The notes beneath the pieces are model-generated. The model was not told the DNA's origin and made no database searches. It saw only the letters and a program-made list of their open reading frames with translations. A stretch of DNA of 64,000 bases from Longimicrobiales bacterium (GTDB lineage Bacteria > Gemmatimonadota > Gemmatimonadetes > Longimicrobiales > Gaopeijiaceae), in NCBI GenBank assembly GCA_965248195.1, contig CBDFIQ010000002.1, forward strand, positions 3,136,001 to 3,200,000, read 5' to 3'. Numbering within the stretch: the first letter of the stretch is position 1; every line of letters starts with the position of its first letter. Made by a program: the position numbers and the translations under genes. Positions 5,673 to 15,960 of this stretch are shown here, in pieces.

Positions 5673-6764
5673 ATGACGAAGCTCATTTCCGCGCTGGTCG
5701 CGCTGACCATGGTCGCGCTGATCGTGGCCGTACCCTCAGCAGACGCGCAATACGCACCCCAGATTCCAGTGGAGTCCGTGCCGGACTTCTTCCGGCTGCC
5801 GATCGGAGTGAACTTCGGCGAGGTGCCCGCCGTGGCCGTCAATTCTCAGGGTCACATCTTCGTGTACAGCCGCTCGAATCCCACCGGGGGTGGTCCCGCA
5901 TACGGCATTCACGCGGCCCAACTGTTCGAGTTCAGCCCCTCGGGCGACTTCATCCGTGAGCACGGCAGAGGGCTCTACGCCTGGGCGTTCGCGCACGGGC
6001 TCAGGATCGATGCGAACGACGACATATGGACGGTGGACAAGGGCTCCAACATGGTCATCCGGATGGACCCTGCGGGCCGGGTCGTCTGGGTGTTCGGCCG
6101 CAAGGCGGAATCGAGCTCCGAGGGGGCTCGCCCGATCGAGCGTCGAAATCCCCCGGCCCCCCCTCAAGACGGGCGTTTCCGCGAGCCCACGGACGTGGCC
6201 TTCGACTCGCAAGGCAACATCTACATCAGCGACGGATACATAAACTCCCGAGTCGCCAAGTACGACATGAACGGCGATTGGGTGATGTCGTGGGGCGAGC
6301 CCGGCACGGGCCCCGGCCAGCTCCGCACCCCACATAGCATAGCGATCGACAGAGATGACAACGTCTATGTCGGCGATCGCTCGAACGCTCGGATTCAGGT
6401 GTTCGACACGGACGGCAACTTCCAGCGGATGTTCAGTGTGGCCACCCCGATCGCGCCCGGCTCCAAGGCCGTGAACGGCACCACCCCGACGGACCTCATG
6501 AGCGTGAGTGGGAACGGGGCGCCGAACTCGCTCTGCATCCCGCCAGGGAGCAACGTCATCTACGTGGGCGAGAGCACGTTCCCCGGGCGGATCATCAAGG
6601 CGACACTCCAGGGCGAGGTGCTCGGGGTCGTCGGCAACGCCGGGCGAATGCTGGGTGAGTTCTCAGGGGTGCATGGACTTGCCTGCCCCACGGAGGACTT
6701 GCTCTTTGCTGCGGAGACCTCGAACTCACGGGTGCAGAAGCTGATTCTGAATCCGCGGAGGTAG
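5673..6764 (+). CDS. NHL-repeat, peptidyl-alpha-hydroxyglycine alpha-amidating lyase (PAL)-like protein
   Basis: AHGL, SDGYINSRV, PHSI, DRSNARIQ; signal peptide. Confidence 0.85.
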   Translation: MTKLISALVALTMVALIVAVPSADAQYAPQIPVESVPDFFRLPIGVNFGEVPAVAVNSQGHIFVYSRSNPTGGGPAYGIHAAQLFEFSPSGDFIREHGRGLYAWAFAHGLRIDANDDIWTVDKGSNMVIRMDPAGRVVWVFGRKAESSSEGARPIERRNPPAPPQDGRFREPTDVAFDSQGNIYISDGYINSRVAKYDMNGDWVMSWGEPGTGPGQLRTPHSIAIDRDDNVYVGDRSNARIQVFDTDGNFQRMFSVATPIAPGSKAVNGTTPTDLMSVSGNGAPNSLCIPPGSNVIYVGESTFPGRIIKATLQGEVLGVVGNAGRMLGEFSGVHGLACPTEDLLFAAETSNSRVQKLILNPRR

Positions 6765-6866
6765 GCCCGGGGCGGGGACGAGTAGTCCTTTGACATTTGT
6801 GCCGCCCGGGGCTGAGTTGGGGAGCGCGATCACGTTCCGCGATGCAGTAACCCATCGGGAGGACAT

Positions 6867-7823
6867 ATGCGAGTAATAGCCGTGACGTGTGGCCTGGTGG
6901 CTGCGACAATGATTTCGTTCGGGGCGGGCGCAGGCGCCCAGGTCGAGCCAAACGACGAGGTCACAAAGGCACAATTCGACACCTGGATGACCGAACTGTC
7001 CAACTGGGGTCGCTGGGGAGCCGACGATCAGCTCGGGGCCGTCAACCTGATCACTCCGGCCAAGCGCGTGGCGGCAGCCCGACTGGTCGAGACTGGCAGG
7101 ACAGTCTCGATGGCGCGTGACATGACGATCGACAGACTCGAGAACCCCGACCAGGCCGGCGCGAACCGACCGCCGGTGCTCGTCGGCTCGGTCCGCAGCG
7201 TGTTCGAAATCGATACCGAGCGCGGGTTCTTCTGGGAGCGTTACGAGATCGAGTACCACGGTGGCCTCGTGTCCCATCTGGACGCGCTCTGCCACGTGGC
7301 ATACAACGGCAAGGTCTACAACGGTCTGGACTTCGAGGACGTCGCCTCCACAGAAGACGGTTGCACGCAGATGGGGGTCGTCAACCTGAAAGACGGACTG
7401 GTCACCCGTGGCATCCTGGTGGATCTTCCTGGGAAGGCGGTGCGTCGACAGGACATCGAGGCGTGGGAAGCGGAGACCGGCATCACGATTTCGTCGGGTG
7501 ATGCTCTTTTCCTGCGCACGGGCCGTGAGGTCGGGCAGACGGGGGGATATCATCCTGAGCTGCTCCCCTTCTTCAGAGAGCGGGATATTGCGCTGCTGGG
7601 CGCCGACGTGCCCCAAGAGGGCGGCCAGATCGAGGGGGTCCCGGTACCGGTGCACGTCTTCGCGATCGTGGGGCTTGGCCTGCACCTCTTCGACAACCTC
7701 GGTCTCGAAGAACTCGCGCAGACGGCCAACGAGCTGAACCGGTGGGAGTTCATGTTTGTGGCCTCACCCCACGCAGTACCCCACGGGGCCGGGGCGGCCC
7801 TCAATCCGATCGCGGTGTTCTAG
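6867..7823 (+). CDS. Cyclase (kynurenine formamidase-like) family protein, exported
   Basis: SNWGRWGADDQLGAVN, HxxxxxHLDALCH, FDNLxLEELA, LNPIA. Confidence 0.85.
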   Translation: MRVIAVTCGLVAATMISFGAGAGAQVEPNDEVTKAQFDTWMTELSNWGRWGADDQLGAVNLITPAKRVAAARLVETGRTVSMARDMTIDRLENPDQAGANRPPVLVGSVRSVFEIDTERGFFWERYEIEYHGGLVSHLDALCHVAYNGKVYNGLDFEDVASTEDGCTQMGVVNLKDGLVTRGILVDLPGKAVRRQDIEAWEAETGITISSGDALFLRTGREVGQTGGYHPELLPFFRERDIALLGADVPQEGGQIEGVPVPVHVFAIVGLGLHLFDNLGLEELAQTANELNRWEFMFVASPHAVPHGAGAALNPIAVF

Positions 7824-7942
7824 AAACAAGGGCTTTCGTCTTCCTGTCCCTCCTGACTTTTCGGGGAGTCGAATAGGGGGTTTCCGCGGGTGGCTGAAAT
7901 CAGGTACACTAGCGGAGGTGAGGACTCGCTGGAGAGACTACC

Positions 7943-9142
7943 GTGAGCACCACGGCAACCGCTGACAGCACAACCATCCCTGGCTCTGAGCCACCCGCCG
8001 CGGGCCTCGCGGCCGCGGCCGACCGCGGCGTGCCCTGGTACATCTGGGCCGTCGTCTTCGCCTCGACCAGTGTGGTCGTCGGAGGGATCTGGGACATCTC
8101 GTGGCACCGCACGATCGGGCGGGACACCTTCTGGACCTCAGCTCACATGGCGATTTACCTCGGCGGCGCGGCCGCTGGGCTCTCGTGCGGCTGGTTGGTC
8201 CTGCGCACGACATTCGCAGCTGTTGCCGCCGGCGATCGCGCTGCGGGGGTCACGTTCTGGGGCTTCCGTGGTCCACTCGGTGCGTGGGTCTGTATCTGGG
8301 GCGCGTTCGCGATGATCGTGTCGGGGCCGTTCGACGACTGGTGGCACAACACGTACGGCCTCGACGTCGAGATCCTGAGCCCGCCGCACACGGTGCTCGC
8401 CGCGGGCATCGTCGGGATCCAGATCGGTGCCATGCTCATGGTGCTCTCGCGACAGAACAACTCCGGTGCCCACTCCTGGCTCGCCCAGCTGCTCTTCGTC
8501 TACGCCGGGGGTGTGTTGATCGTCGCGATGGCCACTGTGGCGATCGAATATGTCGGTTTCCCCAACGACCAGAGGAACGCCGAGTTCTATGTAGTCAGCG
8601 CGGGAATCTTTCCGCTCTTCTTCGTGGGGATCTCCCGCGCTTCGCTTTCTCGGTGGGGGGCTACGGGGGCGGCCGCGGCCTACATGGCCCTAACGGTCCT
8701 CATGATATGGATTCTGCAGCTCTTCACCGCCGAGCCTCTGCTCGGTCCGATCCTTCGGCCGGTCGAGAGCATGATTCCGCCGCCGTTCCCGCTTCTGCTC
8801 GTCGTGCCCGCGCTCGCGGTCGATCTGCTCATGAGGACACTTCCCGCGCAAGTCTCGTCCGTGCGCCCCTGGATCATCGCGGGGGCCATCGGGCTCGCGT
8901 TCGTGGCCGCTCTGCTTGCCGTGCAGTGGTACTTCTCAGCGTTTCTGCTCGGCGAAGGGGCGCGCAACTTCCTCTTCGGCGCGGATCAGTGGGACTACAC
9001 CTCTCGTCCGGGGCCGTGGCAGTACGAGTTCTGGGGCCCGACGGTGCAAGCGAGTGAGCTCGCATGGGCCGCGCTGATTGCCTTCGCATCTGCACGGATC
9101 GGGCTCTGGTGGGGCGGCTGGATGAGTCGCGTGCGCCGGTAG
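7943..9142 (+). CDS. Polytopic membrane protein; PmoC/AmoC-like N-half with both Cu-site motifs plus a PmoA-like C-half
   Basis: About 10 hydrophobic segments; WDISWHRTIGRDTFWTSAH and FDDWWHNTYGLDVEILSPPH; WGAT and FPLLLVVPALAVDLLM. Confidence 0.65.
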   Translation: MSTTATADSTTIPGSEPPAAGLAAAADRGVPWYIWAVVFASTSVVVGGIWDISWHRTIGRDTFWTSAHMAIYLGGAAAGLSCGWLVLRTTFAAVAAGDRAAGVTFWGFRGPLGAWVCIWGAFAMIVSGPFDDWWHNTYGLDVEILSPPHTVLAAGIVGIQIGAMLMVLSRQNNSGAHSWLAQLLFVYAGGVLIVAMATVAIEYVGFPNDQRNAEFYVVSAGIFPLFFVGISRASLSRWGATGAAAAYMALTVLMIWILQLFTAEPLLGPILRPVESMIPPPFPLLLVVPALAVDLLMRTLPAQVSSVRPWIIAGAIGLAFVAALLAVQWYFSAFLLGEGARNFLFGADQWDYTSRPGPWQYEFWGPTVQASELAWAALIAFASARIGLWWGGWMSRVRR

Positions 9143-10686
9143 TGCTGTTGCGCCCGAACAGAAGTACCTGGCCAGCCCTCGCGTTCACATTAGGCGTCAT
9201 GATCGTTGCGTCGGCACACGTAGGGAGCTCGAACGCCTACTTCGAGGGGATGGCCGGACCCTACCCCGTGCGTGTGATCGTTCGGACGCCGGGGGTTATC
9301 CCGGGGCTCGCTCAGATCTCGGTGCGTATCACCGGGGAGTCGGCACCGACTTTCGTCACCGTACGCCCGTTGCGCTGGGACGCGGGGCTTCAAGGGGCGC
9401 CACCTCCGGATACCGCCCGGGCCGTTGCCGGGGAGGCCGGCCTATACTGGGCCGAGCTCTGGCTCATGACCACCGGTTCGTACAGCGTCCACGTCCACGT
9501 CGCCGGTGATGCAGGCGATGGCACCGTGTTCGTTCCCGTCAACGCCGTCGCCGAGAGCCGCCGAGAGATGGGCCGGGCGATGGCAGTCGGGCTGATCGGC
9601 GCCGCGTTGTTTCTATTCGTCGGGGCTATGACGGTCTTCGGCGCCGCGGTTCGCGAGAGCGTGCTTGCGCCGGGGGAGGAGCCTGACCGGAAGCTACGTC
9701 GGCGAGGCGCTGTTGCGACCGGATTCGGCGGCGGCGTGCTCGCTTTGATCCTTTGGGGTGGCTGGGCGTGGTGGGGGGCGGTGGACACCGCATATCGGGC
9801 GGGCATCTATCGGCCACTCGCGACGACGTCGGTCTTGGAGACCGGCGAAGCGGGGCCGGTGCTCACGCTGCGAATCGACGATCCCCAGTGGATGGGACGA
9901 GAGTGGACGCCACTGATGCCCGACCACGGAAAGCTCATGCACATGTTCCTGGTGGGAGACGAGGCTCTGGGGGCGTTCGCGCACATCCACCCGGAGTCCG
10001 CCGACTCGACCTCGTTCGCCGTACCCTTTCCCCCGCTCCCGCCTGGGACCTACCGCATCTACGCGGATATCGTAGACGAGAGCGGCTTCTCCCAAACGCT
10101 GGTCGACACGGTCAAGGCGGGTGCGGAGGTCGAGACAGCGTCGCTCGAGGCGCCCGGTCGAGATCCCGACGACTCCTGGGCTGTGCTCCCCGCCCGGGGG
10201 CGGGCGAGTGGCGAGCGCTTCGCGCTGCCCAGCGGTCGGACCCTGATTTGGGAGGCCGGCATGCAGCCGGGGCTGGACGCCGAGACCACGCTGGCTTTCC
10301 GAGTCACGGAGCCGGACGGCACACCCTCCGCTCTCGAGCCGTATATGGGCATGCTGAGCCATGCGGCAGTAACTCGGGACGACGGGTCGGTCTTTATCCA
10401 CATGCACCCCGCCGGGAGCATCAACCTGGCGGCGCAGGAACGCTTCCGGAGAGCCGAAGATGGCGCCGGTTCCAACACTCAGGGTAGGGGCATGCCGGGG
10501 AGGGGCATGCCGGGAAGGGGGATGCCGGGAAGTGGCATGCCGGAGATGGCGGATGCCACACCGACCGACGTCGTGAGCTTTCCGTTTGTGTTCCCGGCCC
10601 CCGGTGCGTATCGGATCTTCGTGCAAGTGAAGATCGACGGCGCGGTCGAGACCGCGGTGTTCGACGTGGAGGTGCCCGAGGGGTAA
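9142..10686 (+). CDS. Membrane-anchored His-rich periplasmic protein, PmoB-like architecture / putative copper-binding
   Basis: GTG overlaps upstream stop; signal peptide ASA|H; SVHVH; two central TM helices; duplicated H..HxHP domains. Confidence 0.6.
   Translation: MLLRPNRSTWPALAFTLGVMIVASAHVGSSNAYFEGMAGPYPVRVIVRTPGVIPGLAQISVRITGESAPTFVTVRPLRWDAGLQGAPPPDTARAVAGEAGLYWAELWLMTTGSYSVHVHVAGDAGDGTVFVPVNAVAESRREMGRAMAVGLIGAALFLFVGAMTVFGAAVRESVLAPGEEPDRKLRRRGAVATGFGGGVLALILWGGWAWWGAVDTAYRAGIYRPLATTSVLETGEAGPVLTLRIDDPQWMGREWTPLMPDHGKLMHMFLVGDEALGAFAHIHPESADSTSFAVPFPPLPPGTYRIYADIVDESGFSQTLVDTVKAGAEVETASLEAPGRDPDDSWAVLPARGRASGERFALPSGRTLIWEAGMQPGLDAETTLAFRVTEPDGTPSALEPYMGMLSHAAVTRDDGSVFIHMHPAGSINLAAQERFRRAEDGAGSNTQGRGMPGRGMPGRGMPGSGMPEMADATPTDVVSFPFVFPAPGAYRIFVQVKIDGAVETAVFDVEVPEG
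10483..10543 (+). repeat. In-frame 15-bp tandem repeat (GRGMP x3 + GSGMP)
   Basis: ggtaggggcatgccg-type units. Confidence 0.85.
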
Positions 10687-10762
10687 ACGGGCTCTGGTCA
10701 ACGAGCCGGATTCTTCTCCCGGAGGCCGCCGCTAGTCCCCGCTCGATGAACGGGCGCCTTTC

Positions 10763-12984: not shown

Positions 12985-14109
12985 TCAACGTGCTACCCAC
13001 GGCGTTCCAATGATCAATGCCGGATCTGCATCAGGCTTGGCTACGAACTTTTGAGTCCGGCCATACTGATTGTCTCCTCCGTAAAGATTACCCTCCGAGT
13101 CGACCGTAAACGTATGCACTTCGAGATATCCATTCGGTAGCTCTCGGGGGACATTCCACGTGTATAGCCGATTACCCTCGAAATCCATCTTGACGAACCT
13201 GAGCGGTCCCAGGGTGGTTATCCAGATACTGTCCTCGTTGACAATGATGTCCAAAGTCAGGCCAAAACCGCCCCAAACATCAACAAACTCGACTTCTCTC
13301 GGATCGTCTGTGGTCCTGAACACGTTGACTCGACCACCCGAGCGATCAAGGGCAAAGATCAGACCATCGGGCCCGATGCCTATCGCATGAATGCCATTGA
13401 ATTGACCGGGCCCTTCTCCGCGCCCTCCAAACTCTGATAAATATTTTCCGTCGCTATCCAGGATGATGACGCGATGATTGTCCAGCCCATCAGCCACCAG
13501 AACTCTTCCGTCGGGTAAAAAAGCCACGTCCTGCGGCCTGCCGAAATGGGTCTCGTCGTCTCCCGGGGTCAGTTTCTCACCCAGCGTCATCAGCAGTTCA
13601 CTGCCGTCGTTGGAGAACACGTAGATCTGATGAAAGGTCTCGTTGACCACCCACACCCGGCGCTCAGGATCATAGGGGCTTATGCGAAGCCTGTGAGGTC
13701 CTGGTCCTTCTGAACCTGCGCACAAGTAGTCCCACTGATCCCAAATGTCGATCACGTTGCCATCACCATCGATGGTATACAGGCAGTTCTGCCAGGTGCG
13801 CAGATCGGTCGCACTCAAAGTGTTGATCCCGAGGGATCCTGCATATCCTGCAAATTCGGGAGGAATCGGGATCGGCAATCTCGTTTCGCCACGCTGCGCG
13901 ATGAAGATGCGATCCGGCGATTCAGCGAATATCCCGGAATTCCCGCCGAAGGCAAAACCTTGCTTGGCAAATGGTTTATGCCACCCTTCGACGACGTCAT
14001 AAGGGCTGGGGCCGATCGGTCCAAGATCCTGCGATGAAGCTGGTCCGGAAAACAACACGGCAAGTAAACCGGTAAGCGTCGTAACCGCTTGAAGTTCTGA
14101 AGTGCGCAT
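12985..14109 (-). CDS. NHL-repeat (PAL-like) protein
   Basis: FGRPQDVAF, ADGLDNHRV, GPGQFNGIHAI; signal peptide. Confidence 0.8.
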   Translation of the reverse strand: MRTSELQAVTTLTGLLAVLFSGPASSQDLGPIGPSPYDVVEGWHKPFAKQGFAFGGNSGIFAESPDRIFIAQRGETRLPIPIPPEFAGYAGSLGINTLSATDLRTWQNCLYTIDGDGNVIDIWDQWDYLCAGSEGPGPHRLRISPYDPERRVWVVNETFHQIYVFSNDGSELLMTLGEKLTPGDDETHFGRPQDVAFLPDGRVLVADGLDNHRVIILDSDGKYLSEFGGRGEGPGQFNGIHAIGIGPDGLIFALDRSGGRVNVFRTTDDPREVEFVDVWGGFGLTLDIIVNEDSIWITTLGPLRFVKMDFEGNRLYTWNVPRELPNGYLEVHTFTVDSEGNLYGGDNQYGRTQKFVAKPDADPALIIGTPWVAR

Positions 14110-14322
14110 GATCGTATGAGCTCCGAAATGTGGATCTGTGATGACGCCGATGTCTTGTTATTCAGCCTATCATGTACAACCAAACGATGCAGGGTTCAAC
14201 TTCACTGCGAAATCCTCGCCTGCACCTCGCGCTCCACAAGTCCCCGTTTTACCTTGGCTGGTCCCGGAGGGCTCTCTGCCGTCTGGCGGTCCTATCCGTG
14301 GTTTCCTTCAAGGGAGGTTTCA

Positions 14323-15960
14323 ATGTTGCGTTCGATTCGAACGGGACTCCTGGCAGGTGCTACGCTCGTTGCAGTACCGGCGCTCCAGTCGGGAGAGGTG
14401 ATGGCCCAGTTACAGGACCAGTCGCAGATCAGCCCGACCAACGGTCTGCCCAACCCCTACGAGCGCGTCCACCCATGGGGCGAGCTCCCCACGGGTCTCT
14501 ACGATGAGCGGGCGTCGTTCATCGGGGCGGAGGCGGGTCCGGACGGCAACATCTACCTTCTGAGCCGCTGTCTCCAGAACTCGTGCACTGGACGGCCTGA
14601 ACCGCCGGTCCTGAAGCTCGATCCCTCCGGAAGGCTACTGAAGACGTGGGGTTCGGGGATGTTGGAATTCCCCCATGGCTTCGACGTGGACGACGAAGGA
14701 AACGTGTGGGCAAGCGATCAGCGCGGCCACCAGGTGTTCAAGTGGAACGCGGAGGGCGACCTCCTGATGACGCTCGGGCAGAAGGGCATCCAGGGGGACC
14801 CGCCCCGTCTTCTCACCCAGCCGACGGACCTGGTGGTGGCCCCGAACGGCAACATCTTCGTCACCGAAGGTCACGGTGGGGGCGGCAACCGGGTCTCGAA
14901 GTACACGAGCGACGGGAGGTTCGTCATGTCTTGGGGAACCACGGGCTCGGGCGTCGGGGAGTTCATTGTTCCCCACACCATTGCGCTGGACTCGCAAGGC
15001 CGGGTCTTCGTCGGGGATCGTATGAACAACCGGATCCAGATCTTCGATCAGCAGGGGAATTTCCTCGACGTCTGGTACCAGTTCGGTCGCCCGAGCGGCA
15101 TCGCCATAGGCGCCGATGACAGGATTTACGTCGCTGATTCCGAGTCGTGGGGTACCGACAACCCGGGGTGGAAGAAGGGAATTCGGGTGGGCAACGCGCG
15201 GGACGGGACGGTCCTGTACCTCATCGAGGACATCGAATCCACCGCGACCGAGCACAGCGGCGCGGAAGGTGTCGGGGTGGACTCCGAAGGTAATGTCTAC
15301 GGGGCGGTTGTTCGCAGGCGGATGCTCGAGAAGCACGTGCCCGGCGCGGTTTCGGGGACGGCCATGGCTCAACAGGGGGCGCAGGCGCCTACGCATGTTG
15401 CGCATGTCGCTTCTGGCTTCGGCTCAACCCCCGACGGAAAGGGTCTCGCCGCAACGGCCACGACCGAAGCGGGGATCGCGATGCTGCATGCCAATTTCGC
15501 AGTGGGGGACCTCAGCGACCTCGCGGCGATGCAACGACACGCCGGCCACGTTCTCCATGCGCTCGACCCGGCAGAAGGAAGCCGGGGACCGGGGCTCGGC
15601 TTCGGGCTCATCCGCGCCGTGGAGGGCGTGGCGACCCACATCGAGTTGGCGGCGGGTGCCGCCGGTGCCTCGGCGGGTGTGCGCACTCACGCGCAGCACG
15701 TCGCCACGGTCGCTCGCACAGTCGCACGCCGCGCAGAGGAAGCGGCCGCGGTCGCTCGGCGGCTGCAGACGGCGCCTTCGATACGGCGAGCCTCCCCACT
15801 CGTCGCCGAGTTGCGCCTCTTGACGTACCATATGGTTGAGGGCGGAGACCTAAACGGTGACGGGAATTTGTCGCTGGACGGGGAGGCCGGCGTACAGCAG
15901 CTCGAAGCGCACGTCTATCTCCTCCTCGACGGAGATGGACTTCCGAGGATGCTCAGGTAG
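14323..15960 (+). CDS. NHL-repeat (PAL-like) protein with C-terminal helical His-rich domain
   Basis: PHGF, PTDLVV, PHTIALD, DRMNNRIQ; C-terminal DLNGDG; GGAGG RBS before 14323. Confidence 0.8.
   Translation: MLRSIRTGLLAGATLVAVPALQSGEVMAQLQDQSQISPTNGLPNPYERVHPWGELPTGLYDERASFIGAEAGPDGNIYLLSRCLQNSCTGRPEPPVLKLDPSGRLLKTWGSGMLEFPHGFDVDDEGNVWASDQRGHQVFKWNAEGDLLMTLGQKGIQGDPPRLLTQPTDLVVAPNGNIFVTEGHGGGGNRVSKYTSDGRFVMSWGTTGSGVGEFIVPHTIALDSQGRVFVGDRMNNRIQIFDQQGNFLDVWYQFGRPSGIAIGADDRIYVADSESWGTDNPGWKKGIRVGNARDGTVLYLIEDIESTATEHSGAEGVGVDSEGNVYGAVVRRRMLEKHVPGAVSGTAMAQQGAQAPTHVAHVASGFGSTPDGKGLAATATTEAGIAMLHANFAVGDLSDLAAMQRHAGHVLHALDPAEGSRGPGLGFGLIRAVEGVATHIELAAGAAGASAGVRTHAQHVATVARTVARRAEEAAAVARRLQTAPSIRRASPLVAELRLLTYHMVEGGDLNGDGNLSLDGEAGVQQLEAHVYLLLDGDGLPRMLR

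Follow-up and report, generated by a model that had tools for sequence, protein, structure and literature searches.

ORF1 of this stretch of DNA encodes a membrane protein whose construction resembles the C-A core of the copper membrane monooxygenases. It is not a member of the pMMO/AMO/HMO enzymes but belongs to a remote, large and unannotated sister family, which has no name, is widespread and is likely to be distantly related to the methane and ammonia monooxygenases. Together with the gene directly downstream, ORF2, it is part of a larger undescribed system. All coordinates below refer to the window, the whole stretch of 64,000 nucleotides that was analysed.

Results

ORF1 and its two ligand motifs

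ORF1 (7943..9142, + strand; GC3 0.83) starts with GTG, six bases downstream of a Shine-Dalgarno-like GGAGAG (7931..7936, + strand), and specifies 399 amino acids with about 10 predicted membrane helices and both termini predicted to lie inside. In the predicted layout a PmoC-like core is fused to a PmoA-like half: residues 32-177 (8036..8473, + strand) would form a four-helix PmoC/AmoC-like core of two related hairpins, and residues 179-399 (8477..9139, + strand) a PmoA/AmoA-like membrane half, which is without the XmoA signature motifs and has conserved E202, Y247 and D294.

The initial annotation placed two copper-site motifs of the PmoC type in this frame, and both were present at exactly the residues and coordinates given. 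The CuC-type motif, D51-x3-H55-x12-H68 (8093..8146, + strand; codons starting at 8093, 8105 and 8144), contains the conserved R60-D61 common to XmoC, and the CuD-type motif, D131-x3-H135-x13-H149 (8333..8389, + strand; codons starting at 8333, 8345 and 8387), has Asp where XmoC has Asn. The spacings were likewise of the PmoC type as claimed, since D-x3-H-x12-H and N-x3-H-x13-H occurred in all 12 non-redundant XmoC sequences of a comparison set drawn from two xmoCAB genomes, four plasmids and metagenome loci. The AMO ligands Asp134/His138/His151 (CuC) and Asn205/His209/His223 (CuD), as given in the accessible part of PMC12801151, have equal spacings. The two motifs are 80 residues apart in ORF1 as compared to 71-76 in XmoC. 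Alone, the motif pair is weak evidence, because 5 of the 14,039 six-frame ORFs of the genome carry it, ORF1 counted among the five; it was judged not to be a chance occurrence because of its conservation in the family, the profile homology to AmoC/PmoC and the topology described below.

Conservation was assessed in a 91-row alignment made up of 28 close relatives and 63 full-length sequences from 150 listed representatives. The Asp and the two His residues of the CuC-type motif were found in 90, 78 and 89 of the 91 rows, those of the CuD-type motif in 90, 83 and 83, and all six together in 77. One of the 14 exceptions is a fragment and the others have mainly His-to-Gln/Glu/Asp changes; divergent members with such changes at one or both sites are P0184, P0185, P0187, P0197, P0199, P0201 and P0206, with further ones in P0218, P0221, P0236, P0252, P0258 and P0266, and they are possibly subfamilies with altered catalysis. 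At position 211 (8573-8575), in an outer loop of the A-like half, ORF1 has Arg, as do 17 members, and His is present in 73 of the 91; this position could be a seventh metal ligand or a second-sphere residue. The Asp of the CuD-type motif had been described as a replacement of the canonical Asn. The Asp is indeed there, but it is the norm of the family and not a substitution particular to ORF1; in a fused subfamily (see below) the same position held Asp in 116 of 117 sequences and Asn in none. Such a site may still work, because the CuD Asn of AMO can be more than 3 Å from the metal (PMC12801151, accessible part).

Homology of the N-terminal core to subunit C

Searches with the single ORF1 sequence gave no match in Pfam, NCBIfam or the PDB, a search of the ESM Atlas returned unnamed clusters only, and a profile of the 28 close sequences had no PDB match. 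The profile of all 91 sequences gave four matches among 177,635 PDB sequences at E<=10, and all four were AmoC/PmoC/HmoC chains (9leg_C, 9cl6_C, 6cxh_C and 7s4l_C; Pfam PF04896), with E-values from 2.2e-4 to 6.8e-3 and an aligned stretch spanning motif 1. When the family was aligned to XmoC with hhalign, a probability of 87% and an E-value of 3.9e-6 were obtained over 133 columns, in a register that paired D51/H55/H68 with the ligands of CuC and D131/H135/H149 with those of CuD; the score of the N-terminal half against XmoC was reached by none of 60 shuffles. The homology to PmoC that had been proposed was thereby borne out, and profile comparison supports the conclusion that the ORF1 family is a remote homologue of copper membrane monooxygenase subunit C. 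The suggested check against the AmoC Pfam model had a mixed outcome: ORF1 itself did not match, and AmoC was the commonest weak Pfam match of the family, in 15 of the 91 members with a best E-value of 0.0011. At the AmoC family cut-off, subunit C was detected in none of 401 genomes of the same phylum.

The suspected internal duplication was confirmed, as the two hairpins were homologous to each other with a probability of 92%, a score reached by none of 60 shuffles. The two hairpins of XmoC, compared in the same way, gave 0.3%, and the family therefore looks more symmetric than XmoC; from this symmetry, in an unrooted comparison, it may be the Asn of CuD that is derived. The second hairpin alone barely resembled the CuD hairpin of XmoC (probability 1.7%), so the CuD assignment rests on the register of the whole domain.

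An AlphaFold model of ORF1 (pLDDT 93.2, pTM 0.91) shows the core as a four-helix bundle with the six residues at the C-terminal ends of helices 1 and 3 and the N-terminal ends of helices 2 and 4. The motif-bearing loops average 1.4 and 0.5 Lys plus Arg, whereas the alternating loops have 2.0-3.3, and the end carrying the six ligands is predicted to be periplasmic because its loops are the poorest in these residues. The expectation that the ligands share the periplasmic side was thus upheld in the model, where all six lie at the predicted outer end and none on the opposite face. A wide structural search with the C-like half, in which one chain per entry was shown, listed cytochrome b561 and generic bundles and no PmoC. 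Cytochrome b561/Dcytb was rejected as an identification, as the haem-ligand His residues that it has on both membrane faces are absent in ORF1. In a tree of 46 rows, containing a random subset of the family (22) and of the fused relatives (12), the 12 XmoC, a set without archaeal and canonical proteobacterial sequences, were separated from all the others by a long branch with 100/100 support.

The likeness to PmoC/AmoC/HmoC consists of the four-helix core, the D-x3-H-x12-H motif with its downstream R-D, the predicted outer-face location and the second x3-H-x13-H site in register. ORF1 differs in having Asp instead of Asn at CuD throughout its family, in the second domain fused to the core and in its position outside the XmoC clade. 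Bacterial PmoC also has two N-terminal helices; the ORF1 core is without them, like archaeal AmoC, which is as short as the ORF1 C core according to the accessible part of bioRxiv 10.64898/2026.08.31.748207.

The PmoA-like half

For residues about 180-399 an A-like fold is predicted from the model, the best structural matches being PmoA/AmoA chains (for example PDB 3rfr_B, 6cxh_B, 9cl6_B and 9leg_A; Pfam PF02461) with an rmsd of 3.8-4.5; these chains were assigned to subunit A by their length and by the C chains of those entries named in the profile search. Profile alignment of this half to XmoA was collinear over 199-208 columns, and XmoA was not detected by a narrower alignment of the C-terminal half, so that the sequence support for an A-like half is borderline. 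Identity to PmoA/AmoA is 12-16%, both XmoA signature motifs were present in 31 of 31 XmoA but in 0 of 91 family members, and the half differs further from PmoA/AmoA in being fused behind C. ECF S-components match the same region of the model (residues 177-399) as PmoA does, a hint that the folds of PmoA and S-components may be linked; a literature search on such a link found nothing.

The partner gene ORF2

ORF2 (9142..10686, + strand; 514 amino acids) is tightly coupled to ORF1, its GTG sharing one base with the ORF1 TAG. An ORF2-type gene lay 3' of the ORF1-type gene in 79 of 80 loci, the 80th having only 122 bases downstream, and in 29 of 30 loci from the same phylum, the window locus among them. 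In one Gemmatimonadales record a transposase-like gene (L014:7228-8367, - strand) lies between the two. Just 3' of ORF2 is a weak terminator-like hairpin (10690..10710, + strand); six such sites occur in the region, compared to 1.8 +/- 1.6 in shuffles.

The protein begins with a predicted signal peptide ending A-S-A, followed across a presumed cleavage site by His26, the predicted mature His1 (9142..9219, + strand). In each of the 78 partners whose N-terminus could be aligned, H-[VI]-G followed a hydrophobic leader, and His1 was present in 54 of 54. The model of ORF2 (pLDDT 91.6) predicts a His1-bearing Ig-like beta-sandwich of the YtkA/CrdA/CopC kind (9217..9546, + strand) with invariant W82 and M84 in mature numbering, two membrane helices (9574..9801, + strand) and two duplicated His/Met-rich beta domains (9823..10674, + strand), in which H237, H242, H256, H258, M379, H382, H395 and H397 are invariant. 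A Met-rich Gly/Arg/Met/Pro low-complexity repeat at residues 458-472 (about 10511-10560) is modelled as a disordered loop (pLDDT <50) and varies among relatives. Elsewhere in the genome (G000 C1:125742-126782, - strand) a 347-residue protein has the two His-rich domains of the ORF2 type behind a small Cys/His metal-binding-like motif; apart from ORF1, the genome offers this stand-alone relative no C-A partner.

The predicted order of signal peptide, mature His1, beta domain, two membrane helices and more beta domains is that of PmoB/AmoB (Pfam PF04744), and so is the position of the gene directly 3' of the C-A part. Unlike PmoB/AmoB, ORF2 has many invariant His residues in its C-terminal domains, and it showed no sequence similarity to XmoB (4%). 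The CuB HxH occurred in 1 of 54 partners, all with His1, as compared to 26 of 27 XmoB; the one is probably the ORF2 of the window itself, which has such a pair, and the pair is then likely to be incidental. A structural search with the uncut 489-residue model found Ig-like folds, with CBM56, CrdA, CopC and FnIII tied and no PmoB among the rows listed. The fold of the first domain and the His1 after the signal peptide resemble CrdA (9ll2), CopC, YtkA/CtaK and YcnJ. Because of the lack of XmoB similarity, the unconserved HxH and the Ig-like folds, we regard ORF2 as a copper-collecting membrane protein in the position of PmoB and not as a proven PmoB.

Distribution, fused relatives and gene neighbourhood

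At least 5,259 homologues of ORF1 were found among 8,000 scored candidates, and the family forms 2,344 clusters at 50% identity. None of the 120 matches listed for ORF1 had a Pfam domain or an informative name; the closest named one among them, at 69%, was from Longimicrobiales. Of 301 genomes sampled from the same phylum, 70 had a member of the family, and named records come from Acidobacteriota, Gemmatimonadota, Verrucomicrobiota, Binatia and one Bacteroidota plasmid. Eight plasmid records matched, of which seven were examined. A Chondrinema plasmid carries a two-gene unit like ORF1-ORF2, and five actinobacterial plasmid relatives are single chains of 475-496 amino acids, in which both motifs and a membrane part are followed by A-x-A directly before a His, a beta domain and one helix. 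Examples of the two forms are Chondrinema WP_284688389/390 for the two-gene unit and Streptomyces mirabilis WP_212728630 for the single chain. In 117 full-length fused homologues (of 120 listed), each motif with Asp occurred in 116, as did the internal His site, and in 111 that His was preceded by A-x-A; the internal site is evidence from fusion that the His1 domain works with the C core. The middle part of the fused chains compared to the C-terminal half of ORF1 gave a probability of 16%, the tail compared to ORF2 gave 2%, and neither part matched XmoA or XmoB; because these matches are so weak, the labels "A" and "B" for the fused subfamily rest on layout. The Rubrobacter marinus plasmid copy (L206, about 5900-7016) is frameshifted after motif 2, with only its second part annotated, and in a metal-resistance island of a Leifsonia plasmid a predicted vanY-like peptidase gene (L207:4956-5840) lies directly 5' of the fused gene.

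Three of six actinobacterial loci lay among clear copper genes, two had weak hints and one had none. Around the close family no copper context was seen: of 138 neighbours chosen, 59 were scanned, and at E<=1e-30 none of these was copper-related, most having no match at that threshold, and no downstream pathway genes were linked to these loci. Near the window locus are three genes for NHL-repeat beta-propeller proteins (5673-6764, 12985-14109 and 14116-15960), the first two with signal-like leaders. No amoC, amoA, amoB or multihaem (HAO-type) gene was found in the genome, which is 91.8% complete; all of these searches were negative in 14 control genomes, the AmoC and AMO searches were positive in genomes G401 and G515, and those for B and multihaem genes had no positive control. 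Canonical xmoCAB operons occur in these Binatia-related genomes (L083 in G401:C32; L087 and L088 in G515). The operon of G401, which also has an ORF1-ORF2-type module, is followed by a multicopper-oxidase-like gene, and G515 has two xmoA copies. No XmoC relatives were found in viral contigs or phages.

Discussion

ORF1 shares with pMMO/AMO a detectable homology to subunit C, the CuC Asp-x3-His-x12-His and, in the predicted model, the A fold. We place it outside those enzymes because it falls below the AmoC cut-off, has Asp for the CuD Asn, is without the XmoA motifs and lies outside the XmoC clade, and because the ORF2 family, which has an invariant His1, almost always lacks the HxH of the CuB site. 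No description of the ORF1 family was found in the literature covered, which lay mainly outside the subscription journals and excluded supplements, where homologues could be mentioned, nor in the accessible parts of PMC4678205, PMC13058606, PMC11725843, PMC12801151, PMC12537917, PMC13344008 and PMC6215863.

We tentatively favor the proposal that ORF1 is a membrane copper redox enzyme, consisting of a C homologue and an A-like half and loaded by its ORF2 partner. ORF2, probably docked where PmoB sits in the known enzymes, would gather periplasmic copper and deliver it to ORF1; the metal would be bound by the two Asp-His-His sites of ORF1 at the outer face or leaflet. The A-like half would support the pocket in the manner of PmoA, with O2 being activated there on a substrate or donor soluble in the membrane. 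We infer here that the metal is copper, that ORF1 and ORF2 form a complex and that the chemistry involves O2; the substrate is probably not methane or ammonia used as an energy source. A bolder version, which we consider rather unlikely, sees in the family the sister group that the copper membrane monooxygenases as a whole have lacked. It would be a minimal C-A(-B) copper oxygenase that has kept the ancestral, symmetric pair of Asp-His-His sites and carries out a membrane oxidation not yet recognised. It would be just as doubtful that CuC and CuD arose from that pair of sites and that the enzyme, sometimes a single chain, is represented by thousands of proteins of non-methanotrophs.

The same partnership could instead serve copper handling, with the His1 and the His-rich domains of ORF2 capturing periplasmic copper and passing it to the Asp-His-His sites of ORF1, which would buffer it, import it or pass it to cuproenzymes. 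We hold this, the main alternative, to be possible but less probable than an enzyme, since all six ligands lie at one face in the model with no conserved row of inner-face ligands such as a channel would need, no copper-related gene was recognised at E<=1e-30 among the 59 scanned neighbours of the close family, most of which had no match, and the top structural relatives of the C-terminal half are monooxygenase chains. Asp-His-His triads are typical zinc sites, and with Asp instead of Asn ORF1 has two anionic ones, so an intramembrane hydrolase or acyl-transfer enzyme using zinc or another divalent metal also comes into question, the more so as one fused relative had a sub-cut-off acyltransferase match. 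That match was confined to one of eight proteins scanned, however, all sequence relatives of solved structure are copper enzymes, and the His1/Met-rich partner and the copper islands point to copper, which makes a zinc enzyme improbable.

It is very improbable that ORF1 belongs to an unrecognised methane, ammonia or short-alkane monooxygenase supporting growth. Such an enzyme would account for both active-site ligand sets, the C-A order and the His1 partner, but the distribution of the family over the Gemmatimonadota, Acidobacteriota, Verrucomicrobiota and Bacteroidota records is patchy, G401 has it side by side with a true xmoCAB, the XmoA motifs are missing, as is the CuB HxH, and no downstream pathway genes are linked to it. 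Equally hard to credit is a convergent origin, in which a generic four-helix metal site became joined to a generic helical bundle, as the two halves independently point to two different subunits of one enzyme. They do so in the order of the operon, on the evidence of sequence and, in the case of A, of structure.

Archaeal AMO has been the most distant outgroup in pMMO/AMO trees (PMC6215863), and there is continuing debate on whether the active site is CuC, CuD or both (PMC13058606, PMC12801151). Being large and having the two sets of ligands, the ORF1 family would supply an outgroup for those trees. Its natural Asn-to-Asp version of CuD, in one- and two-gene forms with culturable hosts such as Streptomyces, Mycolicibacterium and Chondrinema, would offer an easily expressed scaffold for testing CuC/CuD chemistry, and the family might prove to hold a copper enzyme, or a route of copper handling, that is new.
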